NCBI GenBank assembly: GCA_965235115.1
Contig: OZ249436.1
Coordinates: 5,582,001-5,646,000 of the forward strand
DNA: 64,000 bases
Direction of reading: 5' to 3'
DNA from: Laetmonice hystrix
Taxonomy: Eukaryota
In this document: positions 1-58,227 of the stretch, one piece after another
Layout: each line of letters begins with the position of its first letter
How positions within the stretch are numbered: the first letter of the stretch is position 1
The notes under the pieces: generated by a model
Seen by the model: the letters and a program-made list of their open reading frames with translations, nothing else
Told to the model about the DNA's origin: nothing
Databases searched by the model: none
Position numbers and translations under genes: made by a program

Positions 1-3000
1 GACAGACATATCTTTGGAGGATCAAAGCATTGGAGAGAGATCAAATCTACAACCTCTATCAAATATAATTGAAACCTCAGCTATCGAGAGTGTTAGTACA
101 ACACATGTAGCAGTTGCTGGTATTACTGTGAATGATGCAGGTAAACCTCATTTTGTCTCATACCATTCTGGATCTTTACTGTAGTATTTCAAAGCTTGGA
201 ATAATTAGAAAGAATTTTTTTTTAACCCATATTGTAACACTTAATATTTCTTATTACAGTTGGGTTTGGTATTTGGGATGCTAAGTTTGGAATTCTCCAT
301 GATTGGAAAAAACTGCCACGGTCTTCTTCAGAACAGGTAGGTGAAGAAGGGAAAATGTCACTTGAAAGATTCTGTAAGAAAACAAGAATATATGCAGGCA
401 AGGGGTCGCACCCTCTATTCCCCCTGATAATAATGTTATTTTGGCACATGGCTTTGTGCTGTTCTCATCTAGCGTAAAATTGTTACAAGAATAATTTTAT
501 TTCAGCTAAGGCTGTTCAGCACTGAGAGCCACTTAGTTTTACTCTGTGGTGGAGTAATTTATGCAGCACCTTATACAGCAAAACCAGCAACACTAATAGC
601 AGCACTTGGCAAGTTTAGCACCACTGGCGATAGCCTTTCTAAAGTAAGTATTTTTTTCTGTTTGAAAAAAGCATTATCCTGTCGAAATTATGCTACCAAC
701 AAGAGAGCTGGCTTGAAAATCTCTTGTTGCGATTGATTGTTTGATTGATTGATCGATTGACCAGTTATTTACAGTTCACATAGATATTTGTAAGAAAGGA
801 CTTTATAAACTAGGTATGGTTAAACTAATAGTGTCTCATAAAAATGTGCTAGGTAGATACTACATGGTATATTCAAAAGCTTATGAGCTGGAAGTGTTCA
901 TCTTCCATGTTTGTGCAATATTTTGAGAGGAATGTTTTTTTCAGAATAAAACCTCAGACAACGTGCTGTCTACATTATTAGATGATCTTCATAAGGCTGG
1001 CAAGGTAAGAACATAATTTTGTAGGGAGGAACAACTGTTATACATTTTTATTTTCTGAATTTTGTTCTTTGCTTAAACATCAGCAACAGGTCTTCAGTCA
1101 TCGATTGTTTTGATAATGCGAAATGTCTTTTGAAAATTGCAGAAAGCTTCTCCTGAACTTTATCAAAAGACATTGCAGAGATTACAAGAATTACAAACCA
1201 AGAAGAATGAGTTTCCATTGGTGCAACATCAGGTGGCAGCATTTGTCAATAAATGCATTTCTGAGAGCAACCACTGGCCAGAGCAAGAACTTCACTACCT
1301 TATCAAGAAGAACATGGTTCCCCCAAGGTCAAATCATAATGCAATAATTTGTGTAATTTTTAATATTGAAAATTGATTTTCTTTTCAACTCTCATTACCT
1401 GTTTAAAAATATGAAGGAAATTAGTTTTACCAAATGCACTTGTAACAGCTCTATATTTTAGGTTGTAATCTCTAGGTTTGCCCAGAACTTGACTCCTTAC
1501 CTCCACAGATAGTGTGGCAAGCACGGGCCTGCTGACACATGGAGCCTTTTATTTATTTTGCCATAATTGTTTACCTTGCAGTCTTTCCATGGCAGTTGTT
1601 CACAGCCTGTGCTTGAAAAAAGACATACGACTTCTGCATGCTTGTCTTTTACATCTTAAAGAAATTCCAGAGGCTGCACTTGTAGAATGTCTTGGCTGCT
1701 TCCTTAGGTGAGTTTTCATTGTTAGAAAATCCTGAGGTTAGAGAATAACTTAAAGTTTTTATTTGTTCAAGCTTCTCTAAAAGTGTTGACCATAGATCTG
1801 TAGGCATCCTTGTGATTCACCAAAGAAGGGTAGGGGTTGGTCTTAATTGCCATCATCTCTGGAAGGGAGAATTGACCAGACCAGAAGCCGAGGGTTATTT
1901 ACTGGTAAATACTGACCGCTATTTTCATGTTTTAGTTCTCATGAATGTACCTACAATGGCATGAACGTCGAGGAGGAAGAATCAAGCACACCAGGCTTCT
2001 TCAGCAGACAGAAGGAAACTATAATGTATCCTTAGAGAATTCAGCAGACAGAAGGAAACTATAATGTATCCTTAGAGAATTCAGCAGACAGAAGGAAACT
2101 ATAATGTATCCTTAGAGAATTCAGCAGACAGAAGGAAACTATAATGTATCCTTAGAGAATTCAGCAGACAGAAGGAAACTATAATGTATCCTTAGAGAAT
2201 TCAGCAGACAGAAGGAAACTATAATGTATCCTTAGAGAATTCAGCAGACAGAAGGAATCTATAATGTATCCTTAGAGAATTCAGCAGACAGAAGGAAACT
2301 ATAATGTATCCTTAGAGAATTCAGCAGACAGAAGGAAACTATAATGTATCCTTAGAGAATTCAGCAGACAGAAGGAAACTATAATGTATCCTTAGAGAAT
2401 TCAGCAGACAGAAGGAAACTATAATGTATCCTTAGAGAATTCAGCAGACAGAAGGAAACTATAATGTATCCTTAGAGAATTCAGCAGACAGAAGGAAACT
2501 ATAATGTATCCTTAGAGAATTCAGCAGACAGAAGGAAACTATAATGTATCCTTAGAGAATTCAGCAGACAGAAGGAAACTATAATGTATCCTTAGAGAAT
2601 TTGGCAGACAGGATAGACTACTTGTAATCTTCTTCATGTAGGGTCCCTTATGTCAAATTGTATCATGAAAGAAAAGGTTATTGCCTTGTATTTTCCATGT
2701 TGTGAAAGATTTAAATAAATGTCTTATAGCAAGGAATATAATTTTGTCACTAGAAACGGACCACTTTTTGTCTGATGTATTGGTGTGTATAATCTTGACT
2801 CTGGGCTCAGTCAAAGTGTGTTGGCTCAACCATATAATGACGTCTTTCTTGTCGACTGCCTCAAAACATTGGAATTTTCATCAGCACTGGTAAGTACATT
2901 TGTCTGCAAACTGGTGGTCATGTTGTGGCTAGCCAGGACATTTTTTCATTCATGATTGACTGCGATAGTGGTGTAAGTTTACTCAAACAAATCGGGATGT

Positions 3001-3947
3001 AAGATATGGTCGGTAGTTGGCAATTAGAATATACACTGATTTTATTCACCCTACTACTGTTTCGCAGAGTTTGCTCGGTTACCTTCATCATGTACTGACC
3101 TGCAGTAGTGTCTCCAACAAAGAGGATCGACTATCCAAGACCTTGACTTCTCTCAAGGTAAACTTTCTGTGGTAGATCTTTGTTCCAGAAGTAGATCTCT
3201 CTTTGCAGAACTTAGATCCTACTGTAGTACATGTACTATAGTGATTTATGATCACTAATGGCCCAATTCACTTTGCAATTAGAAAATAAACTGATGATCA
3301 GCAAATGTTTCTGTCCAAGATTACCCTCAAACTATGAGGGATGTTCCAAAAGGAATGGCAATGGAGAGTCCATCTGAACTCTTTCAGATGGACTGATGGT
3401 TCTACAAATTTTCCTGCACATAAAATATTACCAATTCTGAAGACATGATTATTAATATTGCAGGTAGTTGAATGGTGCTCTATGCTACTAGATGCCCATT
3501 TCACCCAGATGGTACTGGCAACAGATGCAAGACAGATTTTGGTTGATCTTCACCAGGAGGTTGAACAGCAGGTATGCATGTATTCTTCATCAATATTAAA
3601 AGGGTCCAGTTATGAGGCGAGGTCGTCAAGAATGTTAAAACACTTGTACGAGATTATTTTTTGCCTGTTGCTTACTAATACAGCCGTAGTTGAAAGTTCA
3701 GTAGACGTTAGATATTATGGTACTTTCATGAAATGTGTCAGTAACTCACTGCAGATATTGCTTGTCCACATTCAGCATGAGAACTCAAAGGAGATATTAA
3801 ATGTCTGTGGGATCGTTATTACAGGTGGCCTACTGTGATGATCTCATCGGACTGCAGGCCATTTTGTCAGGGCTTAAAGAGAAGTGTGTACTACCAAAGA
3901 AACAGCACCCAGGCCTCTACAACATCCACGTTCTACATGTCCGTTAG
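1..3947 (+). CDS. NOL11: Nucleolar protein 11, 3' portion (5' end lies outside the window); 11 coding exons visible
   Basis: Phase-consistent GT-AG exons: <1-140, 260-336, 506-643, 945-1004, 1143-1327, 1582-1707, 1936-2025, 2811-2889, 3068-3157, 3464-3571, 3825-3947 (TAG). Peptides GIWDAKFGILH, ATLIAALGK, LKKDIRLLHACLLHLKEIPEAALVECLGCFL, VVEWCSMLLDAHFT and the C-terminal GLYNIHVLHVR match remembered NOL11 motifs ([46 protein letters not shown]). Confidence 0.88.
2001..2610 (+). repeat. 40-bp minisatellite, 15 near-identical copies, spanning the NOL11 exon end and U12 donor
   Basis: Unit TCAGCAGACAGAAGGAAACTATAAT|GTATCCTTAGAGAAT repeats at 2001, 2041 ... 2561, followed by a degenerate partial copy at 2601. 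Confidence 0.97.
2026..2810 (+). other. U12-type (minor spliceosome) GT-AG intron of NOL11
   Basis: 5' splice site GTATCCTT at 2026. Branch-like TCTTGAC at 2793-2799, about 10 nt before the AG at 2809-2810, with no polypyrimidine tract. Splicing joins ETI-I-QSVLAQPYNDVFL in frame (phase 2). Confidence 0.8.
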
Positions 3948-4457
3948 CTCTAGCTTTTTTAAAAACACAGGCAAAATATTACCAGATGTGAATGTGGAAC
4001 TGCATATGTTGTCATTGGGCAGAAAATATATGAATAAAAATATTACCTGTAATATATAATACACACTTACAGTTTGTATTTATTTTCATCTCTTACATAA
4101 AGAGGAAGAACAATGTAATACTTCAAATCATTACCAAGGATCCATCTTCCACCAAGTTTTCTCAGAAATTACGTCGCAGCCCATCAAATGGTCACCAAGT
4201 TGATTTTACACAAACATACCCAGTTCAATGTGAATCCCCTCCATTCTCTGTCCGTCATTTGAACAAGTTTAATACATAGGTGTACTTTCAATCCCCTTTG
4301 TATTACAATCAGCTGAAATTTCTTCAGTTCAACAATCCGTGGACCACTCGGGCGACAACATCACAGGCTTTTCATCTCCTAACAAAAACAGCCACCTGCA
4401 TACAATTTTGTATACATGATCTGTAAATTACCATATAGCATCCTAAAATTGTCTTCA

Positions 4458-5304
4458 TTACGGGGCAAGCTTGTCCAAGAAACTCTCAATTGCTGCATCA
4501 TCTTTTAAACCAACGAACTTATCAATAACTTTTCCGTCCTTCATGCCCAAGACTGTCGGAACCGCCTGTACCTGTTCAGAGAAGACAAATATATTGGCAT
4601 AAGTACTTGGTCGGATACATGCTTTTATTATTTTATCATGTTTGTTGGAAAATTACATGTATTTTAATAAATTATTTAATAAATTAAATTATTAATAAAT
4701 TATTATACAGGTATTTTGATAAATTACCTGTTTATATATTTTTTTAAACCTACCCCATGGCTCATTGCAAGATCCGCAAGATCATCAATATCAACCTTAG
4801 CCAGAATTAACTTTCCGTCTCTTTCAGCTATCATTGATTCGAGCCGAGGGCCAAGCAACTTGCAGGGTCCACACCACCTAAAAATAAATACAAACACATG
4901 GTACATTTTTGGAGTTGTAATGTACATGTGTGTCCAAAGAGTCTTTAAATTACTTGCAAGCTCTTTTATTCATATAAAAGTAATTTGGCCATTCACCAAC
5001 TTGTGCCCAACAGTTAGAATCTCTATAATGCTTTACTTGTATAGACTTACCCTGCATGGAAATCTATTACAACTGGAGTTTTGCTCTCCACTACCCTTGT
5101 TTTGAAGTCTGCTTCATCTTGGACATTGATGATGTTTTGGCTGAGGCATGCCACTGATGTGTGGATCGAAGCTGGCCTCAGCACAGGGGCCTGTAGTTGT
5201 TGCCTCTGGCATGCAGCCACCACTGATCTGTTCCAGCTGGGTACAGATGACTGGAGGGCAACTCCTAGCCGCAATAACCTTCGAGCAACGTGTCTTTGTG
5301 CCAT
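4458..5304 (-). CDS. TXN2: Mitochondrial thioredoxin (thioredoxin-2), 163 aa
   Basis: Exons 5304-5051, 4877-4754, 4571-4458 total 492 nt. Arg/Leu/Ser-rich transit peptide [13 protein letters not shown]..., then [45 protein letters not shown] and DKFVGLKD. Confidence 0.95.
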
Positions 5305-5780
5305 TGTTTCAATTCAATTCTGGAACATAAGAAAATTCCTTTACAAAGACTTGTGTAACATAAGAATTATTGACCAGAACAATTAATACGATCTTATGCT
5401 CTGAAGCCAATTTCTTTTTAGAGAAGCTCCAAAAGCAACCCCATAATGCCAGAGTTTCCTGCAGGCCTGTTTTTGAGGAGGCTCTGTTTTTCTCATTTGG
5501 CTTTTCAAAGCATGGCTCCTTGGCTTGGGCCTATCTATTTGTCAATGGCGTATGACAAGAACACATACATGCACTTTTAAATCAGATGTAGCATTCTAAA
5601 CAATAGGAAACCATAATTGTCTGAGAAAGGTGACTAGTTGATAGACAGTGCAGATCTATAATCATAGCACATCGATGATCGACCATAAAGATGGACCGCT
5701 GGCTTATCGCACAATCAATGGCAAATGTGAAGTACGAGACTGACTGAAGTTTAACTTTAACTATACTACTACTAGTCTTG

Positions 5781-14959: not shown

Positions 14960-16846
14960 TAATGATGCTAGTAGAGGGCAGAGAGCGAGGAGTGCAGACA
15001 CTGCTCCGATAAAGCCGGGCGTTTGTCTTTCCCTGCCTCCATTCAGAGGGAGTTGACACCAGGGGGCGCCACCACAAGTTCCTAGATGGCATCTGCGAGT
15101 AAAGGTCTTTTTTACTTGATAAATGAAAATAAAAAAATTCTCAGCCTCATTTACGGATATGGGCAGACAGCTGATGACCAGGGCAGTCCATTAGAATGGC
15201 CAAAATTATGCTATATCGTGTTTCTGAGATGCTAGAGCGCGAGGAGTAAAGAGCATGCCACTTAGGGAGATGCCATTTAGAACCGGAAGTTTCCAGATGG
15301 CATATGAAAGAGTAAAGGTCTATACTACTTGATAAATGGAAATAAAAAAATTCTCAGCCTGATTTATGGATAGGAATCGACAGATATTGATAGGGGCAAT
15401 GCATTAGAGTGATCAAAATTATGCTACATCGTGTTTTGTGGATGCTAGAGGGCAGAGAGTGGGGAGTGCAGACGATGCTCCGATATCGTTTTTCTCTGCC
15501 TCCATTCGTAGAGAGTTGACACCAGGGGGCGCCACCACAAGTTCCTAAATGGCATCTGCGAGTAAAGGTCTGTTTTACGTGATAAATGAAAATAAAAAAT
15601 TTCTCAGCCTCATTTACGGATATGGGAAGACAGATGATGACCAGGGCAATCCATTAGAATGGCCAAAATTATGCTACATCGTGTTTCTTAGATGCTAGAG
15701 CGCGAGGAGTAAAGAGCATGCCACTTAGAGAGATGCCAAGTAGAGCCGGAAGTTTCCAAATGGCATATGAAAGAGTAAAGGTCTGTTTTACTTGATAAAT
15801 GGAAATTAAAAAAATCTCAGCCTGATTTATGGATAGGAATCGACAGATAATGATAGGGGCAATGCATTAGAATGATTAAAATTATGCTACATCGTGTTTT
15901 GTGGATGCTAGAGGGCAGAGAGTGGGGAGGGCAGACGATGCTCCGATATCGTTTTTCTCTGCCTCCATTCGTAGAGAGTTGACACCAGGGGGCGCCACCA
16001 CAAGTTCCTAAATGGCATCTGCGAGTAAAGGTCTGTTTTACGTGATAAATGAAAATAAAAAATTTCTCAGCCTCATTTACGGATATGGGAAGACAGATGA
16101 TGACCAGGGCAATCCATTAGAATGGCCAAAATTATGCTACATCGTGTTTCTTAGATGCTAGAGCGCGAGGAGTAAAGAGCATGCCACTTAGAGAGATGCC
16201 AAGTAGAGCCGGAAGTTTCCAAATGGCATATGAAAGAGTAAAGGTCTGTTTTACTTGATAAATGGAAATTAAAAAAATCTCAGCCTGATTTATGGATAGG
16301 AATCGACAGATAATGATAGGGGCAATGCATTAGAATGATTAAAATTATGCTACATCGTGTTTTGTGGATGCTAGAGGGCAGAGAGTGGGGAGGGCAGACG
16401 ATGCTCCGATATCGTTTTTCTCTGCCTCCATTCGTAGAGAGTTGACACCAGGGGGCGCCACCACAAGTTCCTAAATGGCATCTGCGAGTAAAGGTCTGTT
16501 TTACGTGATAAATGAAAATAAAAAATTTCTCAGCCTCATTTACGGATATGGGAAGACAGATGATGACCAGGGCAATCCATTAGAATGGCCAAAATTATGC
16601 TACATCGTGTTTCTTAGATGCTAGAGCGCGAGGAGTAAAGAGCATGCCACTTAGAGAGATGCCAAGTAGAGCCGGAAGTTTCCAAATGGCATATGAAAGA
16701 GTAAAGGTCTGTTTTACTTGATAAATGGAAATTTAAAAAATCTCAGCCTGATTTATGGATAGGAATCGACAGATAATGATAGGGGCAATGCATTAGAATG
16801 ATCAAAATTATGCTACATCGTGTTTTGTGGATGCTAGAGGGCAGAG
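14960..16846 (+). repeat. 463-bp tandem array (dimer of ~230-bp subunits), about 4 units, left arm
   Basis: TGACACCAGGGGGCGCCAC recurs at 15054, 15517, 15980 and 16443. The alternate subunit carries CCGGAAGT. Confidence 0.95.
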
Positions 16847-21294: not shown

Positions 21295-23817
21295 CTTTAA
21301 GTGGCATACTCTTTACTCCTCGCGCTCTAAAATAATAATAATTTTGGCCATTCTAATGGATTGCCCATATCATTATCTATCGCTTCTTATCCATAAATCA
21401 GACAGATTTTTTTATTTCCATTTATCAAGTAAAACAGACCTTTACTCGCAGATGCCATTTAGGAACTTGTGGTGGCGCCCCCTGGTGTCAACTCTCTACG
21501 AATGGAGGCAGAGAAAGACGGTATCGGAGCATCGTCTGCACTCCCCACTCTCTGCCCTCTAGCATCCACAAAACACGATGTAGCATAACTTTGATCACTC
21601 TAATGCATTGCCCCTATCATTATATCTGTCGATTCCTATCCATAAATCAGGCTGAGATTTTTTTATTTTCATTTATCAAGTAAAACAGACCTTTACTCTT
21701 TCATATGCCATTTGGAAACTTCCGGTTCTACTTGGCATCTCTCTAAGTGGCATGCTCTTTACTCCTCGCGCTCTAGCATCTAAGAAACACGATGTAGCAT
21801 AATTTTGGCCATTCTAATGGATTGCCCTGGTCATCATCTGTCTTCCCATATCCGTAAATGAGGCTGAGAAATTTTTTATTTTCATTTGTCACGTAAAACA
21901 GACCTTTACTCGCAGATGCCATTTAGGAACTTGTGGTGGCGCCCCCTGGTGTCAACTCTCTACGAATGGAGGCAGAGAAAGACGGTATCGGAGCATCGTC
22001 TGCACTCCCCACTCTCTGCCCTCTAGCATCCACAAAACACGATGTAGCATAATTTTGATCATTCTAATGCATTGCCCCTATCATTATCTGTCGATTCCTA
22101 TCCATAAATCAGGCTGAGATTTTTTTATTTTCATTTATCAAGTAAAACAGACCTTTACTCTTTCATATGCCATTTGGAAACTTCCGGTTCTACTTGGCAT
22201 CTCTCTAAGTGGCATGCTCTTTACTCCTCGCGCTCTAGCATCTAAGAAACACGATGTAGCATAATTTTGGCCATTCTAATGAATTGCCCTGGTCATCATC
22301 TGTCTTCCCATATCCGTAAATGAGGCTGAGAATTTTTTTATTTTCATTTGTCACGTAAAACAGACCTTTACTCGCAGATGCCATTTAGGAACTTGTGGTG
22401 GCGCCCCCTGGTGTCAACTCTCTACGAATGGAGGCAGAGAAAGACGGTATCGGAGCATCGTCTGCACTCCCCACTCTCTGCCCTCTAGCATCCACAAAAC
22501 ACGATGTAGCATAATTTTGATCATTCTAATGCATTGCCCTTATCATTATCTGTCGATTCCTATCCATAAATCAGGCTGAGAATTTTTTTATTTCCATTTA
22601 TCAAGTAGTATAGACCTTTACTCTTTCATATGCCATTTGGAAACTTCCGGCTCTACTTGGCATCTCTCTAAGTGGCATGCTCTTTACTCCTCGCGCTCTA
22701 GCATCTAAGAAACACGATGTAGCATAATTTTGGCCATTCTAATGGATTGCCCTGGTCATCATCTGTCTTCCCATATCCGTAAATGAGGCTGAGAAATTTT
22801 TTATTTTCATTTGTCACGTAAAACAGACCTTTACTCGCAGATGCCATTTAGGAACTTGTGGTGGCGCCCCCTGGTGTCAACTCTCTACGAATGGAGGCAG
22901 AGAAAGACGATATCGGAGCATCGTCTGCACTCCCCACTCTCTGCCCTCTAGCATCCACAAAACACGATGTAGCATAATTTTGATCATTCTAATGCATTGC
23001 CCCTATCATTATCTGTCGATTCCTATCCATAAATCAGGCTGAGATTTTTTTAATTTCCATTTATCAAGTAAAACAGACCTTTACTCTTTCATATGCCATT
23101 TGGAAACTTCCGGCTCTACTTGGCATCTCTCTAACTAAGTGGCATGCTCTTTACTCCTCGCGCTCTAGCATCTAAGAAACACGATGTAGCATAATTTTGG
23201 CCATTCTAATGGATTGCCCTGGTCATCATCTGTCTTCCCATATCCGTAAATGAGGCTGAGAATTTTTTTATTTTCATTTATCACGTAAAACAGACCTTTA
23301 CTCGCAGATGCCATTTAGGAACTTGTGGTGGCGCCCCCTGGTGTCAACTCTCTACGAATGGAGGCAGAGAAAGACGATATCGGAGCATCGTCTGCACTCC
23401 CCACTCTCTGCCCTCTAGCATCCACAAAACACGATGTAGCATAATTTTGATCATTCTAATGCATTGCCCCTATCATTATCTGTCGATTCCTATCCATAAA
23501 TCAGGCTGAGAATTTTTTTATTTCCATTTATCAAGTAAAACAGACCTTTACTCTTTCATATGCCATTTGGAAACTTCCGGCTCTACTTGGCATCTCTCTA
23601 AGTGGCATGCTCTTTACTCCTCGCGCTCTAGCATCTAAGAAACACGATGTAGCATAATTTTGGCCATTCTGATGGATTGCCCTGGTCATCAGCTGTCTTC
23701 CCTTATCCGTAAACTAGGCTGAGAATTTTTTTATTTTCATTTATCAAGCAAAACAGACCTTTACTCTCATATGCCAGGTATGAAGTTGTAGTGGCGCCCC
23801 CTAGTGTCAACTCTCTC
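21295..23817 (-). repeat. Same 463-bp tandem array in inverted orientation, about 5.5 units, right arm
   Basis: GTGGCGCCCCCTRGTGTCA at 21472, 21936, 22398, 22861, 23328 and 23791. Confidence 0.95.
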
Positions 23818-43138: not shown

Positions 43139-46100
43139 ATGCGCGAAAGGACGGAAGCGATGCGAACAATGCGAGATCCATGGAAACGAGCGATGTCGCT
43201 TGTCTTTCTTCAATCCGTAATTTCTCTCTTGTCGCAGGCGAATAGCAACGAAGTCGTACCTCTGTGCCCTGTTAACGATAAAACGTGTGAGATAGTGTTG
43301 GAGATAGGTCACACTGTCACAATGACAAGACGAGATGACGTTGGAGGGACTCATGCGTACTATTTTAATAAAAGTGGAGAGGCATACGAATACAAACCTT
43401 GTAGCCCAAACAGCGAAGGAAAATCAGTCGAAGGTATAGTTTTTAAGATACAAAATTTAATTTCGTAATTACCCTAATTTATAGTATTGATAAAAATGCG
43501 ACGAATCTGATAAATGTGTATACGGAGAAGAACCTGTTACACGTATAACCGTGGATGATATAAACATTTGTCGTCTTCTACACCAAAAAGAAAACATCGG
43601 GCAATCTTTGCCGACCTCACTGTAAAAAAATCGTAGTTTTTACGGAAATTTACCGTATTCTTGCACGGAAAATTTCTCTCGCTGACCTTCGGTAAATATC
43701 ACGGATATTATCTGTTGTTTATTCAGTGAAGTACGCATTAGAAGAATCGCGGAAAATCTCTGTAATTTTTACGGATATTCCGTTGCCAGTTTACGGAAAC
43801 AATATTACGGAACTCGTTATTTTTACGGAAAATATCCGGTTCCTTTGTTGCCAGACATTTTCCGTAAATTTAACGGAATTTTTCTAACAATGTAGGCCTA
43901 TCATGGATAGGCCACGTAGATTCTTTGGTTGAACATGTGAGGGTTTTTTTATTAGATATATCCGAGATTCCTTTCGGGGATGGCTCCTTCAAGCTCGTGA
44001 CTGTTTACAATGGCTCTCTACCTGGTCCGCCAATTGTAGTCTACCGAGGACAAGAGGTAAAGTGACGTTTCTAATCTTGATGGAAAGCAAGTAATCCCAG
44101 GTAGAGCACGACTAGGTGTAGGAAAGGTAGGACCCAATCAGTATAATAGGTGAACATGCGATGCCTGCTTCCATATTTCAGATTTTAGATTCATTTGATT
44201 TGATTCTAGATTCATTACACACCAAAAAAAGGTCCAAAAGCTCCAACATTTCCAAAACTTTAGACTTTCTCTGTTTCCTGTAGGATTGGATACTAAGTAG
44301 TAAAACCTGGAAGAATTTATCATTTACATAGCCAAAATAAATTACACCAAATCATTTACATAGCCAAAATAAATTACGCCAAATCATTTACATAGCCAAA
44401 ATAAATTACGCCAAATCATTTACATAGCCAAAATAAATTACGCCAAATCATTTACACAGCCAAAATAAATTACGCCAAATCATTTACATAGCCAAAATAA
44501 ATTACGCCGGCAACCTATAAACTCGTAAAATTGCCATAGTTCTTTAGTCAAGTGGCGTATTTATGAAATAAATTAAAAATAAATAAATCGGGCCATGATT
44601 ATGAATCGGGCGGGGAGCATGGTCGATCATGAACAGATCGGAAATCCAAATTCATGATCTTGGTAAATGTCCAGGTGGTTATACGACTGAAGAACAATAT
44701 TGGGCACGAATCGACGACGCTGCATTCCCACGGTATCCACCAGTTCCGGACCCCTTGGATGGACGGTGTGGCTGGAGTCTCTCACTGCCCTATCAACCCA
44801 GGAGAAACGTTTACATATAGGTACAGTATCTCACTGCCCCATCAACCCAGGGGAAACGTTTACATATAGGTACAGTATCTCACTGCCCTATCAACCCAGG
44901 GGAAACGTTTACATAAAGGTATACAGTCACTGCCCTATATCAACCCAGGGGAAACGTTTACATATAGGTACAGTATCTCACTGCCCTATCAACCCAGGGG
45001 AAACGTTTACATATAGGTACAGTCTCTCACTGCCCTATCAACCCGGGGGAAACGTTTACATATAGGTACAGTCACTGCCCTATCAACCCAGGGGAAACGT
45101 TTACATATAGGTACAGTCTCCCACTGCCCTATCAACCCGGGGGAAACGTTTACATATAGGTACAGTCTCTCACTGCCCTATCAACCCAGGGGAAACGTTT
45201 ACATATAGGTACAGTCACTGCCCTATCAACCCAGGGGAAACGTTTACATATAGGTACAGTCACTGACCTATCAACCCAGGGGAAACGTTTACATATAGGT
45301 ACAGTCACTGCCCTATCAACCCAGGGGAAACGTTTACATATAGGTACAGTCTCCCACTGCCCTATCAACCCAGGGGAAACGTTTACATATAGGTACAGTC
45401 TCTCACTGCCCTATCAACCCGGGGGAAACGTTTACATATAGGTACAGTCTCTCACTGCCCTATCAACCCGGGGGAAACGTTTACATATAGGTACAGTATC
45501 TCACTGCCCTATCAACCCAGGGGAAACGTTTACATATAGGTACAGTATCTCACTGCCCTATCAACCCAGGGGAAACGTTTACAGATAGGTACAGTATCTC
45601 ACTGCCCTATCAACCCGGGGGAAACGTTTACATATAGGTACAGTCACTGCCCTATCAACCCGGGGGAAACGTTTACATATAGGTACAGTCACTGCCCTAT
45701 CAACCCGGGGGAAACGTTTACATATAGGTACAGTCTCTCACTGCCCTATCAACCCGGGGGAAACGTTTACATATAGGTACAGTATCTCACTGCCCTATCA
45801 ACCCGGGGGAAACGTTTACATATAGGTACAGTCACTGCCCTATCAACCCGGGGGAAACGTTTACATATAGGTACAGTCACTGCCCTATCAACCCAGGGGA
45901 AACGTTTACATATACATTGTAGGTACAGTCTATCACTGCCCTATCAACCCAGGGGAAACGTTTACATATAGGTACAATCACTGCCCTATCAACCCGGGGG
46001 AAACGTTTACATATAGGTACAGTCACCGCCCTATCAACCCGGGGGACACGTTTACATATAGGTACAATCACTGCCCTATCAACCCAGGGGAAACGTTTAC

Positions 46101-46804
46101 ATATAGGTACAGTCAACTCCACATATCAGATTTGCTTCTAACCGAGACTGCATGCATTTGTTAAATTAAGGCCTAGATCTATACAATGTAGATAGAATGA
46201 CCTGGAACATCCCGAAAGGGAGAGGTGCCTTCTGGAATCCAACCCTATATCCGAAGTACAGCCATTCACGTAGCCTATAATGAAGGTCTCTATCGCCAAG
46301 CGCGGTATCTGAACAAAGGCAGGTAATCACGATTATATAATGTTGTTTGGTTGGCGGTTACCTGAATAGGTTTGAGGCGGAGCCGGCAGGCACACACTGG
46401 TACCACAGTCATCACGGGACCCAGCGTACAATGGGAGCAGCTGGAGCTTTGATCGTCCTCGAGACAGCAGAGGACCTCAAGGAGGAGCGGGTAAAGTAAC
46501 AGGCCTCGGATCGACAAAGAGAACAGTTTGGGTCATTTTTATGATGGTTTTCATTGAGATATTTATCATTTAGACTAAACTATAATGTATGACCATGTGG
46601 GCAACGGCACGGGGGGGGGATCATTATTGGGGGTTTGGGGGAAGAGGTCCGAAACGTTTCAGCGGTTCGACAGTGCATGTGCTTGAAAACATCATACTTT
46701 TTAAATGCGAGATCAGATTTTTGGGGAGGTCACCCCTCCCCCATCTTAATTATTGGGAAGGAGAACCCCCTACTGACTGGCTCTCTCTCTCTCACCCTCT
46801 GTCG

Positions 46805-46895
<91 letters not shown>

Positions 46896-49800
46896 CGGTC
46901 CCCCCTCCCCGATTTCCTCAGTGAACTCTCTCCATCATGCAACTTTATTCCAATCTTTTCCCAACCTCCAGGGCAGTGATGTTCTGCCGACCTTTCACAA
47001 GGAATTTTACATGGTTTTACAAGACTGGATGCGGAGAAGTTCAGACGACCTGTTGACCTTGATCAAATACGACACAGTAAAGTAAGTGAACTCCAAATTG
47101 TTGTCAGTTACCTAAAATGTATGTGTCTGTTCTTTATATTAGCTGCATGATAAAATAGCTGTGCCGATGTCCTTTATACGGTTGAGAGGTATAGAGGTAT
47201 AGTTGGGATGACAAGTTATCGGGCATGTAGTAGATTGCCTAGTCTACTCATGTGTAGTCCCACATTCGGGAGTTTATCTTTTATTGTTCGAGCGGCTATA
47301 TAAATGTATGTCCCTAACCCCCATCTTTCTAACTTAAAGGTACAGGAAAAGTTCAAAATATCAATAGAAGGGTGTTCAGCATGAACAAGCTTGTTCCTAC
47401 CTACAATCCTGTGCTGTGATGGTATGATCTTTAATAAGGAATAATCAACTGAAATGTAGAGACATTCCCCCGCTGGCTTCGTCTGCTTGTCTGCCCTACT
47501 TGGCCCCACTTCAGTCACGTGACGCCGCGTCATAGCTCCCCTGTGTCGCGTGAAAATTAGCGCGTGACCCGCGCGGTAATTTTAGAAAGTCGACGAGACA
47601 GCGTTCAACTTATCGGTGCGACCGTAGACAGTTCAGTTACTGGTGTTCAAAGGTACGTTTTTGAGGAACTTTTCCTGTACCTTTAATGCGTAGAATTCTA
47701 CTGCTGATTTGTCTACATTATACATGTTTGAGAGGAAGACCCTGCCCGTTCCACATGCAGGTATCCTTTTGGCTATGGCAGCGTGAACGAATGCTACAAT
47801 TCCACCAAGCAGGCTGATGGCGTTGACAGTGGTGTCTTACCGTTTGTGTCAGCTCTCCTAAATGGCAGAGGTCCGTATACTGACGGCATCATTGAAAACA
47901 CACGCTAGACAATGTTCTACATGTAGGCCTACATGAAACAGACAAGTGAACAGCAGTTAATTATGACATTTATTGGGTGAAGTTTAGCAAGCTTGATTTA
48001 TGCCCAACGGGCTACCATTTCTAATGACCCTTAATGATCCTCTCACACCTTGCCGGATAGCATAAACGGACGTGCGACGGAGAGAAACTTTGTCAAAATT
48101 AACCATCCGGTGGTGAAAGTCGTCTCTGTTGCTACTCGATGCCCTCAGGCGGGCACAAGTCAGTATAGGCTGCCGAATAGTCCGGTGGAAGGACTTCCGT
48201 TTTCGTAACGCTATGGTGTGGGAGTGATACGGCCGTGGGGATTCTATATCTATATTCTTACGCGTGACGTCACAGCAGTTCACTGACTTGAGCCCTCGGG
48301 CGTTTCTCCGGATTGAACGGACCTCGCCTGACAAGGAACGCATTTGGCGAACGAGAAACGGACAAGAAACGCATGCAAACGGAGATAATCCGTTTATGCT
48401 ATCCGGCAAGGTGTGACAGGGCCATTAAAGCGGTGTTTCCATTAACGCGGCTGCGGCCCGGCTGCGGTGCGGTCACTCGTACGGCTGATAAGACACGTCG
48501 TTGTTTTTAAAGGTGCGTCCCGGCTGCGTCTCAATGTTGTTGGTATAAGGTCATAGGCCATACACCTGCCGAATCGAAAAGTTTTTCGATAAGTTTTTCG
48601 ATATCTTCCTCGCTGACCACGTGAGGTATGGTGCCATCCATTTTTTGAGTGAAGAACATGCACGGGACCACCTAGGATCAAGGGGATCCCTCATGCGGCT
48701 CATCTGCGGCTGTGCTCGAATCGCTCCATGACGCGATCGGGAAGAGCCGCATCCGACGCCCGGACGGGCGCCGTACGGAGATCGCATTAATGGAAACACT
48801 TACATTAAAAACAACGACGTGCGATATCAGCCGTACCCGTGCCCGGACCGCAGCCGGACCGCAGCCGCGTTAATGGAAACACCGCTTAAGAGCGTCACTG
48901 TAATCTCGAAAATAGCAAAGGCATGGTTATAACGGACGTTATGTTGACATAATGTGACACTTGCTTATGTATATTGAAACAGGAAGGTACAATGGTCGTA
49001 ATCCAATGTACCCCGGAAAGACTTATGTCCCCTTTGAGATCTACAAGGTGAGAAAGGGTGGATTTTATCGATTCCGGGTCATCGGGGCGTCAATGCTGTT
49101 CAGCTTCCGAGTGTCGGTTGATGGCCACCCGATTTATGTCATCGCAACCGACGGCACGAATGTAAGGGCTCGCCGACTGGAGTCGCTGATTATATTTAAT
49201 GGGGAAAGGTAAAGATGTTTGGTTTTTGTATCTCCAAAACAGTGATTGGCTTAGTAATGATGTAGTATTGGGGCACCTGTCATTAAAACACTAATTGGCT
49301 TAGTAATGATGTAGTATTGGGGCACCTGTCATTAAAACAGTGATTGGCTTAGTAATGATGTAGTATTGGGGCACCTGTCATTAAAACACTAATTGGCTTA
49401 GTAATGATGTAGTATTGGGGCACCTGTCATTAAAACACTAATTGGCTTAGTAATGATGTAGTATTGGGGCACCTGTCATTAAAACACTAATTGGCTTAGT
49501 AATGATGTAGTATTGGGGCACCTGTCATTAAAACAGTGATTGGCTTAGTAATGATGTAGTAGTGTGGCACCTGTCATTAAAACACTAATTGGCTTAGTAA
49601 TGATGTAGTATTGGGGCACCTGTCATTAAAACAGTGATTGGCTTAGTAATGATGTAGTAGTGTGGCACCTGTCATTAAAACACTAATTGGCTTAGTAATG
49701 ATGTAGTATTGGGGCACCTGTCATTAAAACAGTGATTGGCTTAGTAATGATGTAGTATTGGGGCACCTGTCATTAAAACAGTGATTGGCTTAGTAATGAT

Positions 49801-52800
49801 GTAGTATTGGGGCACCTGTCATTAAAACACTAATTGGCTTAGTAATGATGTAGTATTGGGGCACCTGTCATTAAAACACTAATTGGCTTAGTAATGATGT
49901 AGTATTGGGGCACCTGTCATTAAAACACTAATTGGCTTAGTAATGATGTAGTATTGGGGCACCTGTCATTAAAACAGTGATTGGCTTAGTAATGATGTAG
50001 TAGTGTGGCACCTGTCATTAAAACACTAATTGGCTTAGTAATGATGTAGTATTGGGGCACCTGTCATTAAAACAGTGATTGGCTTAGTAATGATGTAGTA
50101 TTGGGGCACCTGTCATTAAAACACTAATTGGCTTAGTAATGATGTAGTAGTGTGGCACCTGTCATTAAAACACTAATTGGCTTAGTAATGATGTAGTATT
50201 GGGGCACCTGTCATTAAAACAGTGATTGGCTTAGAAATGATGTAGTATTGGGGCACCTGTCATTAAAACACTAATTGGCTTAGTAATGATGTAGTATTGG
50301 GGCACCTGTCATTAAAACACTAATTGGCTTAGTAATGATGTAGTATTGGGGCACCTGTCATTAAAACACTAATTGGCTTAGTAATGATGTAGTAGTGTGG
50401 CACCTGTCATTAAAACACTAATCGGCTTAGTAATGATGTAGTATTGGGGCACCTGTAATTTTCTCGGTTACAATGATCTGTGTGACCTAAGCTTAGGCCA
50501 AAAAAAAAAGAATCGTTTCTTGTCCCCGCGCGCGTCACCTAAAAACCCCCGCGTCAAGTCTTTTTTCAAATCCGGCTGCTTCATAATTATGGTGGGCACT
50601 GTAGCGCTGTGACAGAACGTTGCAACGGTTCCTTGGCGTTGGCGTTTTTCTGCTATAGTACTGTAATTGCATTCGAAGAATCGGCCGTTGTCTAGTTGCA
50701 TCCAACTGTGGCCTTACTGTGTAAACTTATCTTGTACAACGTGAAGTTTTAGGTCAACCGGTGGTAGGCCTTTGTTATTCGCGGCCTAATGCCTTTCTGG
50801 GAGATTTTGATGGTTTTTCTTTCCTCGTTTTAAAGACACGTTTGGACACAATGATACTTGTCACTTATTGGATCTACACTGATCTATTGTATCACGATTT
50901 AAGATTTATGCGCATCTTGCTACAGATATGATTTCTACATTGAAGCCACCGATCCCGAAAACACCGGAAATTACTGGATCCGAGTGACAACTTTAGAGTT
51001 CATCCAAAACAACAAGGTTCGTTAAGCAGATATTTCAGGTGAACAACATCATCATCAACAACAACATCATCAACAATGAATCACTTCACTGTACACTGGG
51101 GGATCCAGGGGGCCCAAGGGCCCCCCCCCCTTAAATTTTCCTTTTCCCCGCTTTTTGTAAGAAGATGAATTATTCGGACCCTGAAACCAGTATTCCAACA
51201 AAATTCTATCAAAAAAAAGCCTCCTATATTGTACGTAAAAGTAACATCGGGCCCAATAGGGCCTCCTCAGTCATCCAGGAGCAACATAACTCTGGGTCAT
51301 GCAGCATTGAAATAGACCAAAGGGGCCCAAAATGGCATGATTACAATAAAATCATGCCGAGCTTAGCGAGGCTAAAATATTTTTAGGTGCCCCCCCCCCC
51401 CCCATTATCAAAATCCTGGATCCCCCACTGCTGTATAGGCCTACAGCATGTTTTCATAATCTATTCTACATAATTAGTAGTACAGAACAGATATTCGTTT
51501 ATTCATTGTAGCTATGAATATTTTTTTCAATCTTACAGATATACTGGAACCATTGTCATTGTACACAGGGCACATGCAATTAGTATGTGTCATTTGCATC
51601 ACAGTTATAACCTTGCGTAAACTAAAACCAACCCTAATTAATTTTATTTGTGTGAAACAATCATTACCTTGTAAACTGCCCACGCCCTTCCAGCGTGTAG
51701 AACCCAATGAGGTCGTAGCTATTCTCAGATATGATGAGGCACCACAAATAGAACCGGAATCCACACGAGTCAACTGCACCAGCCTCGCGCCTTGCCATGT
51801 ACTCAACTGCCCGTTTAGGTAAAAGTTGTAAGCTGCATCTGTCTAGACTAATCTATTTTTGGTTGGCCTTATCCTTTTTTATTTCAAGAATGTCATTAGT
51901 AGTATCCAGGTCGCGCTTTGATAATTCATCCAAGTCAGGTTGACATAGATTTGTGTTTGTATAGGAAATATCCAGACGTAGATCACATAGTTTGCCAACC
52001 AGTCACGGATCTACGTCTCACTCGACCGTTGGCAATCTTTCAACCGGACGACCCTGCGGATTTCGAAGAACATTTCCTAAACTTCCATTTTGTTTGGGAA
52101 GCTTCTGGAGACACGGAACACCCGTCGATAAACGGCGTGGTTCACCGACTGTCGTCTGGAAGTCCCCAGGTTTGTGTCCCACACAGAACGACAGCTAGAA
52201 TTGATATTTGCCATACAATTAAGTTTGTTGATTGCTCATAATGATTAATGTATTCCACTAAGTATAATGTGATCTCCATGGCCTCATGGACTTAAAGGTA
52301 ATATGTCACGGGGGGTATCGACCGATACCTGCTTACCGTTTTCTGCTTACCTGCTCACCACTGACGTACTTTATACTGATTGTTTTTCATATTGATTCTG
52401 GTAACATACTACGAGTAGACAGCTGTGAAATTCTCCCTAATGTAGAAAAACGAATAAAACTAGCTGCAGTGTCCGCAAAGTGCGATGAATCCGCCATTTT
52501 GGCCCCCTTTGGCTGCCGCGAATCGTTTGAACGGGTCCAATGATCACGTGACTCTCGCAAAACACAGCCGGCCGCAAATCCCGGGGTCTTGGAATCTGTG
52601 TCATTTTCAGTGACCGCCTTAAGAATTGGCGATTTTTTTTTACAAAATATCGGCCAAAGCTATATAAACAGGTAGGGGACCTTTGAGGCATATCGGAGAA
52701 CCGCAATGCAGACATATTTTTGATGAAACACGATGTATTATTTGCAATTCGTGACATATTACCTTTAAACAGTAAATTTTGACTCAAGCTTAACCAAGCC

Positions 52801-54266
52801 CAGCCATTGTTTTAGCACTCTCAGAACTTTACATATACATGTAGGTCTATATCCTTTTGGCAGGCTTACCCAAGTGAACCCTCAGAAGAACTCTGTGAGG
52901 AGATTATCTGTGCGAATGCAATATGCACGTGTCAACACCAGGTGGCGTTGTCATTAGGAAAGGTTATCCAGTTTAACATCGGCGTAACGGTATCGAATTC
53001 TCGTAAGTAGGACCTTTAAGTCACATCACATTATATATGTTTACATGTATTATAAATTAAAAGGAAAACACCGCTTGTAGAAATGTCAAGATTATTCAAC
53101 ATAAATGAACTTATAAGGTTCGAGAAAGCGTGATTTAATTTTTATCATTGAATAAATGTAGTTAGGCCTATATTGTCCTTTCGTTAGGTTATCTCCTGGA
53201 AAGGGGACAACATGATAACGTTTAAGTTAAATCAACATTAATAGAGTCTACATTTTGTAGTTATAAAATTTCCTGGTTGAAAAGCCAACTTCCTTTTTCC
53301 AACTTCAGCTGGCGTAATTAATGGTAATGACCATCCAGTTCATATCCACGGTCACAAGTTTCAATTGCTGAAAACTGTCTATGGCACGTACGATCCTGTG
53401 AGTAAGTACTACACGAACACGACGAATGACTTCTACTGTGAGGACGCTGCATGTAACCAACTGTCCTGGCCCAATAGTAGCTGGTATGGAGGTAACTTGG
53501 AAGGTTTAACACCAGAGGGCGCTCCGCTCAAGGACACGTTGGTCGTACCTGTTGGTGGCTATGTTGTAGTACGAATGAAAACCGACAACCCAGGTGAGTG
53601 GGATTTACGGATCTGAGACTGTGATAGCATTCGTGATTAGTGATAATCATAGTGATAAACATAATGTTTGTGATAGAGACGACAATAATCTTACTATAAT
53701 AAAGCTATTGTAATAACAGATAAGCCTACCGTAGTTTGAGACAAAAAGCGTTGGCGTAAAAATAATAATGACCTTTTCTCTTCTGAAAATTTACGGCAAA
53801 AGAACTCTCACATGTGTAATTTTCAGGGTACTGGTATATGCACTGTCACGTAGAGTTTCATAACGCGGAGGGCATGGGTCTCCAGTTTAAGGTAGGAAAC
53901 GAAGACGAGATGAATGATAGACCAGATAATTTACGAACCTGCGGCGATTTCTCGTGGGACGATGAGGAATTCGAGAATGGACTACTGGGTCTACCCTCTG
54001 GTATGTATTGATGTATGTCAAATCTATGTCGGATAACAATTCTAACATTGTTTTACAAGTTCTCTATTCTCCTTGTGTAAATTTATGTCGCCTTACTATA
54101 GGAATCTTGTTTTTTAATTGAAGAATTACCAGAATATAGGACGGAAGCCTATCAAATGGCCACGATTGTCCTGACGTCTTGCTCTGTCGTACTGTTGCTG
54201 CTGATCGCCAGAAAAGTTTGTGAGTCGAGATTGGCCACTCTAACACCGACCAAAGACCGTCCATGA
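43139..54266 (+). CDS. Three-domain multicopper oxidase (laccase/ascorbate oxidase-like) with signal peptide and C-terminal transmembrane helix, ~753 aa
   Basis: Exons 43139-43433, 43956-44056, 44675-44820, 46370-46490, 46972-47081, 47761-47870, 48983-49208, 50926-51016, 51694-51818, 51965-52169, 52864-53002, 53309-53593, 53827-54000, 54133-54266 total 2262 nt with consistent phases. All four Cu signatures are present: HSHG...WMDGV...CPI, GTHWYHSH, HPVHIHGH, WYMHCHVEFHNAEGM. The start codon and last exon are less certain. Confidence 0.93.
43618..43892. mobile_element. EnSpm-like MITE in a laccase intron
   Basis: CACTGTAAAAAAAT ... ATTTTTCTAACAATG ends with many TTACGG/CCGTAA subterminal motifs. 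Confidence 0.55.
44318..44508. repeat. 32-bp minisatellite, 6 copies
   Basis: Unit ATCATTTACATAGCCAAAATAAATTACGCCAA. Confidence 0.95.
44783..46115 (+). repeat. 45/49-bp minisatellite, ~28 copies, made of the laccase exon-3 end plus its donor site
   Basis: Unit CACTGCCCTATCAACCCRGGGGAAACGTTTACATATAG|GTACAGT(ATCT). The first copy is the real exon end, encoding HCPINPGETFTYR. Confidence 0.97.
46790..46892. repeat. (CT)n microsatellite
   Basis: Directly visible CT run. Confidence 0.98.
47338..47682. mobile_element. Kolobok-like MITE
   Basis: TIR AGGTACAGGAAAAGTTC with TTAA TSD. Confidence 0.85.
48035..48424. mobile_element. Harbinger-like MITE
   Basis: TIR core TCACACCTTGCCGGATAGCATAAACGGA, with TTAA on both flanks. 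Confidence 0.8.
48429..48886. mobile_element. 458-bp PIF/Harbinger-like MITE, copy 2 (inverted relative to 13850-14307)
   Basis: Same TIR AGCGGTGTTTCCATTAACGCGG with TAA TSD (48426-28, 48887-89). It is inserted in the flank of the adjacent MITE. Confidence 0.88.
49237..50457. repeat. 49-bp minisatellite, ~25 copies, starting ~28 nt after a laccase donor site
   Basis: Unit AAAACACTAATTGGCTTAGTAATGATGTAGTATTGGGGCACCTGTCATT with two interspersed variant positions. Confidence 0.97.
52296..52764. mobile_element. Kolobok-like MITE
   Basis: TIR AGGTAATATGTCACG with TTAA TSD. Confidence 0.85.
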
Positions 54267-55480: not shown

Positions 55481-57263
55481 TTAACTTACTTCACACAAGA
55501 ACAAACCGAATACACAGCAAAGCAATGTTAATAGTGACAACCACTTGCTACCAGTCTCACCAGTAGGGGGCGTGAGTGTCGGTGGCCGCCTCGTTGTCCT
55601 TCCATCCGGGCAGTTGTCTGGGCACGGTCCACATAATGACTCGAGATAAAAGAGGCTTCCACCAAAGACTTTATTTTGGCTGCTCGTGACTGGAAACAGA
55701 TCCCTTGAAATGGACGAGGTGGTCACTCTGACAACTACCAGTCCCACGCCACCAAGGCCAGATTGTTGTGAGTAACATCCGAAGTATACCCGTAGTGGAG
55801 AGGATGACGCCACGGAAACTCCAGTAAGTACACGACCTAACGGCATCGATGTATCCGCTGGAGCGTGAAAAGAAAAAAAGAAAATTGAACAAAATAATTG
55901 ACAAGGCAGACTAGAGATATTATATTTTTACAAAGAAATATTATAATATTTCCGTCGTTAAAAACTACCATTGCAACATATTTAAACTGGAAATAAAATG
56001 ATAGGCATAAAGTTGTGAATCGGCCTATCCTCTGGACCCAGTTTTTATAAACTTAATAATTTGCATAAGTTTAAGCTTAACGATTCCAATTGGCTAATCA
56101 AAAGCCTTTAGCTTAAGCAACTTTTTAAACTAAAAAATGGGGGCCGTAATGTGCTCACCTGTACATATTCCTTCATCATAGGCCTGTCCCTGGTCTACGA
56201 TCACCGACTTGATACTGAGATTTGGCCCGTCGACTGGGGCACATGTCAATGTTTCAGCTGCCGTCCAACATAGCATTCCATTCATGTAGTCCAACTCTCC
56301 GAACCCTCGAATTCGTGTGTTACCCCCGTATTCACTGGGCACCCTCACAGAGGACACTATTTTACCTTTGGTGAGATTTTGAACTTGGTACAGGTTCATT
56401 TTCACCTCGCTTTCTTCTTTTTCTATCAGTTGTAGATAGAAATACAGAACGCCGTCCGAGCTGGCTTGTACTGGTTGCAAGGAACTGCCGAGCCACGTGG
56501 TGAGAACGGTTTTGTCTAGGATGTATTCAATGCTATGGACTGTTGCCGCGAGGTCGGAGTATTTCAGTACATCAAAATTGGGGATAACTGACCCAGCACC
56601 CCGGGTGATATTTTGAAGGATCTCCTCATATCCCTTAACTAAAACTCGGACCTGGATCTCTCTGCGAAGGGAATCGGAATATTGTCCAAACACCGCAGAA
56701 AGGACAAAATACAATCTACTCTTATTCAGGGTAAAAGCTGCCCATCCACACTTCCAGCCACATTCCATCAAGAAAGGGTGGTCCGGGTCAACCAGCCGTA
56801 CCTCCGGAATGTCTATTCGGAGTGGCAAGGCAGTGTAGTCGGTAGAGTATGGGATATTGGAGGGACAGATGTTTCCCTTTGCAACAATCGTCCTGTCTTT
56901 GGTGAGGTTCTCGACCTCCACTAGAACGTCCCGACTGACTGGATCAAACGACGTCCGTCGTATGTTGACACCGTGCGCGCTGAAGGCATCGGGCAGTTCG
57001 AATCCATTGTAGCCACGTTCAAATAGGTTGTCTGCTTGGCCATTATTTGAATGGTTAATTGAACCTCCCCATAACCCAGGTTTCACCCCATCGCCCCCAG
57101 GAGAGGCTCTGAAGAGGAAGCCAGCCTCCCCAGACCTGGTCAAGATGAAGACGAGATAACAAAGAATGACGTTATGACTGGCGTTCCTTCCATGACGTCG
57201 GCACAGACGACAATTGAATGGCACCCAGCCGTGAGTGGCTCTACCCTTTGTGGTCTGAAACAT
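55481..57263 (-). CDS. Uncharacterised 493-aa secreted, probably GPI- or membrane-anchored protein (2 coding exons)
   Basis: Exons 57263-56159 (donor G|GTGAGC) and 55857-55481 (acceptor TTTTCACGCTCCAG) join in phase 1 and total 1482 nt. N-terminal hydrophobic segment VILCYLVFILTRSGEA, a beta-rich Cys-containing body, a Thr/Pro stalk and a hydrophobic C-terminus WLSLLTLLCCVFGLFLCEVS. Confidence 0.8.
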
Positions 57264-58227
57264 AAAGCCGAGTTTTCATAACGAATATTGTCGCCGAGAG
57301 CATTTTAATATAGACACACAGAGAAGGAATATTATATATAGGCCTCCTAATTATGTCGGTGTAACTTTACAGAAATTGAATTGCGAAATAGGTCATATCA
57401 AACCACGCCTAAAATAATTTACTAGGGCCCTACATCTCTCTTGCCAGACAAAAACGGTCAGAACTCTCGACATCCTATAGTTTTTCCTTAGACATAAGTG
57501 CAGACAGAGATATCGTATAGGCCTACATGTATCTAATGCTGCTACCGTTTGGATGTACATGTATATCTAATGCTGCTACCGTTTGGACCCGTCGTTGTTT
57601 ATATTATAGCCATTAGTAGGCCACTATCTTGAAGTTATTCGGCCTCTATTTACACTGAGATAGTGCTATAGCAGTGCTGTAGCCAGGGGTTGATGCCCGG
57701 GGAGAGGGTGGGGGGGTTACCAAGAGATTATTGTGGGGTGGACATCCTTGATGACCATACTGATAACCAAACAATGTTTTAACCGGGGGGTTACATTCGT
57801 ACCCGGGGGGTTACATTCGTACCCGGGGGAGGGGGGGTACAGAACCCCACCCCCACCCCGGCCACGGTCCTGTTACAGATCAGTAAACATTGGAAACAGG
57901 ATGCAGGGGCGGATACAGGATTTTCAAGACGGGGGGGTGCTATGAAAAAGGGCACTTTCTCACCCCCCCAGTGAGTAGACTAAACAGTCAAATAAAAGTA
58001 GCACACCAACAGGGCGGTAGCTAGAAATGTTTGAGTGTGGGGGCAGTCATGGGGCGGATCCAGGAATTTGGTAAAAGGGGTGTCCCCCATGCGAGCGCCG
58101 AAGTCGAGAAGCCATGAATGGGGGGTCTGGGGGCCCTCCCCCGGAAAAAAAGAAAATTACAGTGCCAAATACGCGATATAGACCAGCCTTTAGGCCTATA
58201 ATAGACCTATATAGGGCAGTAATGTCA

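Follow-up and report, generated by a model that had tools for sequence, protein, structure and literature searches.

A boundary-spanning minisatellite with fifteen copies of a U12-type 5' splice site in the NOL11 gene of Laetmonice hystrix

The window, that is, the whole stretch of 64,000 nucleotides of Laetmonice hystrix DNA analyzed here, opens with the 3' part of a NOL11 gene, whose 11-exon model gives an open frame of 404 residues when the intron behind position 2025 is spliced from its first donor. The host had been named NOL11 in the first-pass annotation, and this identity is upheld by several comparisons: human NOL11 is the best PDB match of two exons (E 0.078 and 0.0037), one of eight exons shows a weak Pfam Nol11_C match (E 0.0061, below the curated cut-off), and an alignment of the spliced model with Lingula NOL11 has 391 columns, 145 of them identities. 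A search with one exon gave 12 relatives, seven of which were looked up; three of these are unnamed fragments and four are full-length proteins named NOL11 or nucleolar protein 11, two belonging to annelids, one to a nemertean and one to a brachiopod, which makes a spiralian host probable. A word-index protein search, again with one exon, gave three candidates, none of which passed. No gap appears at the junction left by the intron of interest in any of the four homologue alignments. A metagenome scan returned, among 320 candidate stretches, two near-identical and distant NOL11 loci in which the junction position has no intron and no U12 donor motif occurs; they are not informative on animals. 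The features of the locus are as follows, X1 to X4 being four read runs.

2-3947, forward strand: 3' part of NOL11, 11 exons and 10 introns, 5' end before the window and stop codon at 3945-3947 (gene model, homology, all four introns tested seen in X4).
1936-2025, forward strand: exon before the U12-type intron, with the exonic bases of repeat unit 1 as its last 26 nt (gene model; unique sequence present as a loose end on the spliced contig).
2000-2599, forward strand: minisatellite, 15 x 40 nt (Tandem Repeats Finder, motif and probe counts, repeat-unit contigs in all four runs).
2012-2033, forward strand: predicted hairpin in which exonic bases pair with donor positions +4 to +8 (RNA folding, prediction only).
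2026-2034, forward strand: working U12-type 5' splice site, phase 2 (8/9 U12, 4/9 U1; used in X4).
2033-2035, forward strand: in-frame TAG, reached on intron retention or from any downstream donor (gene model).
2066-2594, forward strand: 14 downstream pseudo-donors at 2066+40n (motif positions; used by no contig among those listed for X4).
2600-2631, forward strand: apparent decayed 16th copy, donor broken (alignment to the unit).
2791-2799, forward strand: U12-like branch site with 2798 as its branch A (match of 6/9; 12 nt before the intron end).
2809-2810, forward strand: AG acceptor, with no pyrimidine tract behind the branch site (X4 joint to 2811).
2811-2889, forward strand: exon after the U12-type intron (gene model, X4 joint, homologue alignments).

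Outside NOL11, a thioredoxin gene at 4000-5330 on the reverse strand converges on it (Pfam match at 4727-4969); we presume it to be of the mitochondrial type. An open frame of 278 residues at 27298-28131 matches the TEX33 family (E 3.7e-13), and another of 381 residues, at 56133-57275 on the reverse strand, has no Pfam match. Two arrays of a 463-nt unit lie at 15028-16846 and 21338-23816, and, to judge by their consensus sequences, they seem to carry the same unit in opposite orientations. Rfam returned no match in the 64-kb window, which therefore holds neither an intronic snoRNA nor a minor snRNA among the families searched.

The donor at 2026 agrees with the U12 consensus at 8/9 positions, the best score among the 10 NOL11 introns, and with the U1 consensus at 4/9, the lowest among them. 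The first-pass annotation had placed a U12-like branch site before the acceptor at 2810, and this stands: although the 6/9 match does not discriminate alone, being reached in two of the nine other NOL11 introns at 15 and 19 nt, the distance of branch A from the intron end falls inside the 11-13 nt described as optimal in the accessible text of PMC3584512. Considering (i) the donor match, (ii) the branch-site distance and (iii) the spliced GT-AG ends seen in X4, the intron, of 785 nt (225 nt with one unit), is on sequence grounds a U12-type GT-AG intron, as had been claimed. The NOL11 intron at 3158-3463 has a donor that is 7/9 U12-like and 6/9 U1-like, and no good branch site.

A U12-type GT-AG intron is also assigned to human NOL11, at chr17:67738355-67738931, in supplements of PMC11039992, PMC6800510 and PMC11347168, and it shares with the window intron both the gene and the subtype. 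Its orthologue is classed as minor in Lingula, Octopus and Betta, three of the four rows consulted in Table S8 of PMC11347168 (263 species), where Lottia appears with the NOL11 protein orthologue only. NOL11 is merely listed in the material seen from PMC1874599 and PMC12589426, the supplement of PMC7367187, as available, has no NOL11 row, and the supplements examined did not yield the number that the U12 intron bears in the human gene. Since none of the other nine introns in view has a U12-type donor (the 5' part of the gene lying outside the window), the window intron would occupy the same position as the human one.

The array itself was recovered by Tandem Repeats Finder at 2000-2611 with period 40, 15.3 copies and 99% matches. 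Each 40-nt unit consists of 26 nt of exon end and 14 nt of intron start, and the U12 donor motif GTATCCTT recurs at 2026+40n, with n from 0 to 14. A 30-nt unit probe finds 15 matches in the window versus 0 expected from 100 shuffles. The 40-bp unit and its 15 copies are thus as first described, while the exonic share is 26 rather than 25 nt and the array starts at 2000. Fourteen of the 15 units are identical, unit 7 differing by one substitution at 2258. Of 16 plus-strand GTATCCTT matches in the window, 15 are these copies; the remaining one, a lone perfect motif at 47761 in the region of a multicopper oxidase gene, has no branch site within 4 kb downstream by the patterns used and is probably due to chance. 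Outside the array, U12-like donor motifs are found at 19 sites in the window, counting both strands.

Behind the last full unit, positions 2600-2631 can be aligned to the unit over 34 columns, of which 23 are identical, a score equaled by none of the 63,288 other 32-mers of the window, and the donor of this 16th copy has lost the U12 consensus. The part past its first 12 bases is weaker when taken alone (1,105 of 63,300 20-mers score as high), and judged by the letters, the segment may instead be a short chance repeat followed by noise. Within it, an 11-nt tandem duplication behind 2613 is present in X1 and X3 reads and absent from the window, which would fit local instability of the array. 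The hairpin predicted over the donor, of -5.2 kcal/mol, leaves it unpaired with a probability of 0.19-0.20 at all 15 donors; being the same everywhere, this structure cannot account for the choice of the first donor, and any part it may play in slippage would be speculation.

Reads from the four runs, all from one sample, probably the assembly's own source, and none recorded as RNA, were compared over 2546-3990, a segment containing one full unit, within which later donors are indistinguishable and copy number is not derivable. X4 was taken as RNA on account of its GT-AG joints. In the three unspliced-looking runs, X1, X2 and X3, the repeat-unit contig has depths of 621, 234 and 709 against 47, 38 and 58 for the flank, and the resulting ratios of 6-13, although depth does not equal copy number, indicate that the array is multi-copy in the reads. 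The single-copy assembly artefact considered in the first-pass annotation is thereby set aside, the exact number of 15 not being confirmed by depth. That the assembler expanded a single copy can almost be dismissed: the near-perfect units would suit such an error, and the runs probably come from the assembly's own sample, but the excess depth in three of three runs, the variant unit 7 and the decayed copy all speak against it.

All four predicted introns of 2546-3990 appear in X4 as GT-AG joints. X4 contig 23 (690 nt, depth 40.1) extends without a break from unique upstream exon across the joint to 2811; as it carries the unique upstream exon, it represents donor 1, and the predicted junction between the first donor and 2811 is thus observed, in contigs of one run and one sample. 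The first two X4 depth bins, 58.8 and 5.36, are reproduced exactly by contig 23 together with the repeat-unit contig, so that no other contig leads into or out of the array and no abundant entry into it occurs. An abundant product of a later donor should, given how graph assembly works, have broken contig 23. Abundant use of downstream donors appears to be absent; rare or degraded products lie beyond the reach of contigs from one run. The X4 contigs listed include none from a downstream donor, rare forms being lost from contigs and stop-bearing ones being subject to removal by decay. The X4 repeat-unit depth of 37.5, spread over 10-15 units, amounts to 6-9% of that of the spliced contig, which is an upper-range value for the sum of retention, later-donor use and carried-over DNA, and the X4 contig retaining the ordinary downstream intron at 3158-3463 has a depth of 13.6, above the per-unit depth of the array. 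No contig covers 2644-2790 in X4 and X2, which is not counted as evidence of absence. The unique 3' part of the intron is thus without a contig in X4 though the repeat has one, a pattern that low-level downstream-donor use would also yield. In the gene model, only donor 1 keeps the protein open, as had been noticed at the outset: its use gives the 404 residues, while all 14 downstream donors lead to a stop at codon 275.

An internal control is provided by the same window, 43 kb from the NOL11 array.

44776-46113, forward strand: 49-nt minisatellite, 28 copies of an exon end plus a U2-type donor, first donor at 44821 (Tandem Repeats Finder, placement in the multicopper oxidase gene).

Its units vary by a 4-nt deletion. 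The gene that harbors it, at 43874-53613 on the forward strand, is laccase-like, with Pfam Cu-oxidase_3, Cu-oxidase and Cu-oxidase_2 matches, and has another two arrays, at 44319-44508 and 49236-50460, that are purely intronic. Altogether, 28 tandem-repeat loci make up 21% of the window. Arrays of at least 150 nt number 14, of which two are shown to span a donor; four of the 14 lie in placeable genes, including both donor-spanning ones, the other 10 not being tied to exons. By a crude estimate, the chance that a 40-nt unit in an intron of the size of that in NOL11 holds a whole donor is 0.09-0.20. Minor introns, as calculated from survey counts, represent 0.22% of the introns of Lingula and 0.29% of those of Lottia, some hundreds per genome. 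In a genome rich in such arrays, a U12 case would then need no special cause.

Arrays of this architecture are known from other genomes. Human boundary-spanning minisatellites described in the available text of PMC1557585 include F7 intron 7 (37 bp, 5-9 units), CBS intron 13 (15-20 units), the interferon-inducible 6-16 (25 pseudo-sites), LMNB2 and PDGFA; the first donor only is used in F7, LMNB2 and PDGFA, two pseudo-donors being used as well in CBS and 6-16. As in the F7 type, unit 1 of the NOL11 array spans the boundary, identical donors run into the intron, the most upstream one is used, and the size and number of units are similar. On the contrary, the F7-type donors are recognized by U1, U12 being mentioned nowhere in the portion of PMC1557585 at hand, whereas the NOL11 donor is U12-type; and length polymorphism is reported there for F7 and CBS, while the NOL11 array is known from one sample. 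The 'mirage' minisatellites of amphioxus, in Adh3 and in the globins BflGb6 and BflGb9, leave splicing undisturbed and have a terminal unit spared homogenization, according to the accessible part of PMC3087553. They resemble the NOL11 array in the duplicated exon-intron boundary in a marine invertebrate, the homogenized core, the diverged terminal unit and the normal splicing, and differ from it in their amphioxus hosts, the present array being in a spiralian and on a U12-type intron. With its first unit at the true boundary and normal splicing from the authentic site (one run, contigs), the NOL11 array is a member of the boundary-spanning minisatellites. No such minisatellite on a U12 intron was found in the open-access papers searched; its donor makes it a new version of an otherwise known repeat, most likely a neutral one.

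Taken together, these observations most likely describe a minisatellite of the mirage or F7 type that arose by chance on a U12 intron conserved in NOL11 and that the gene tolerates, without any selected function. The neutral slippage that the first-pass annotation had offered as an alternative is the reading favored here, given the decayed 16th copy and the U2 donor amplified alike in the window. An old tandem duplication would have copied the exon end and donor once, and this copy, whose remnant is still visible, would subsequently have decayed. The short direct repeat so formed may then have seeded a recent expansion to some 10-15 near-identical units, the homogeneity of the units being observed and slippage or unequal exchange being the presumed mechanism. 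The minor spliceosome would take donor 1, pairing it with the single good branch site, and the extra copies would leave with the intron; donor 1 probably owes its success to the order of transcription and to exon definition over the 90 nt in front of it. Splicing that slipped to a later donor would meet the stop, with four junctions still downstream, and the product would probably be degraded. Unit homogeneity and the decayed copy argue, as features of the sequence, for a young array; youth explains that all 15 donors are intact, which could also reflect selection. Neutrality is what we infer from a single individual.

The same donors may, on a different reading, be leaky, the later ones, nearer the branch site, being sometimes used and their products degraded, so that longer alleles would mean less NOL11. 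This dosage effect would draw on the stop behind every later donor, on the cooperative bridging of the intron by U11/U12 (PMC3584512, text as available), on the two pseudo-donors used in CBS and 6-16 (PMC1557585, in the part consulted), and on X4 containing repeat sequence but no contig from the unique 3' part of the intron; X1 and X3 depth ratios of 10-13 versus 15 units would also suit a shorter second allele, with the same caution on depth and copy number. Nonetheless, contig 23 is unbroken, no downstream-donor contig is among those listed, the per-unit depth is a small share of the spliced one, and the F7 pseudo-donors are functional yet non-competing in the same portion of PMC1557585; leakage with a dosage effect is thus judged unlikely. 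The X4 contigs listed, in which no downstream donor is used, speak neither for nor against the copy-number poison switch suggested in the first-pass annotation, given that rare or degraded products would escape them. Slightly less credible still is a fuller version, a ladder of 15 identical U12 donors, variable in length, that compete for one branch site, with later-donor use rising with copy number or with U11/U12 supply and its products destroyed, by which NOL11 output would become a heritable read-out of minor-spliceosome activity and a USSE-like control would have originated de novo from a minisatellite.

A selected role had been suggested as well, as a USSE-like enhancer or as a U11 sink or sensor coupling the level of the minor spliceosome to ribosome biogenesis. 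The USSE, as described in the accessible text of PMC3584512, PMC5473595 and PMC8329584, consists of conserved tandem U12 sites that are not spliced and that, in SNRNP48 and RNPC3, switch on a U2 acceptor lying upstream at a constrained distance, and it regulates minor-spliceosome proteins. The NOL11 array shares with it the core, tandem copies of the U12 5' splice-site consensus, together with their placement in non-coding sequence and the possibility of an outcome that contains a stop, and the human NOL11 minor intron responds to minor-spliceosome loss in four of nine listed conditions in the part seen of Table S6 of PMC11347168. On the contrary, site 1 of the array is the real, spliced donor of a real U12 intron, its copies carry exon sequence, and the host is neither SNRNP48 nor RNPC3, so that the array falls outside the definition of a USSE. 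Moreover, no upstream alternative acceptor product is among the X4 contigs listed (covering the downstream side, 2546-3990), the oldest extra copy has lost its donor, the array is nearly homogeneous, and the same layout occurs on a U2 donor nearby. As a sink, 14 extra sites per nascent transcript would be small against the 275-503 minor introns counted in the genomes of three marine spiralians (the leech has 53). Both the enhancer analogy and the sink or sensor are consequently disfavored, and a selected role of either kind is very improbable. Equally hard to credit is a micro-exon or recursive cassette, in which AGs of the unit, lying after a weak branch-like stretch, could define pieces ending at the next donor: frame arithmetic allows in-frame pieces of 30, 21 or 18 nt from three of six AGs, but no backward joint or cassette contig is among those listed in X4, the homologues are ungapped at the junction, and the internal stretch is without the branch A of the consensus.

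Such repeats were the means by which the farthest upstream of several identical donors was shown to prevail in splicing by the major spliceosome (PMC1557585, in the text available). The minor spliceosome recognizes the two ends of an intron in cooperation and seldom gives alternative splicing (PMC3584512, likewise from the text available). The NOL11 locus is a natural test of the minor spliceosome: its 15 identical U12 donors face one branch site, the transcript takes the donor farthest from that site, and this favors first-come or exon-defined donor choice over choice of the nearest donor, provided that decay is not hiding the rest. The false donors of the array call for caution from annotators and minor-intron classifiers. 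A genome so rich in repeats should hold more U12 cases, enabling the tolerance of introns of the U12 and of the U2 type to such arrays to be compared. As a matter of the biology of the organism, the array is probably ordinary.
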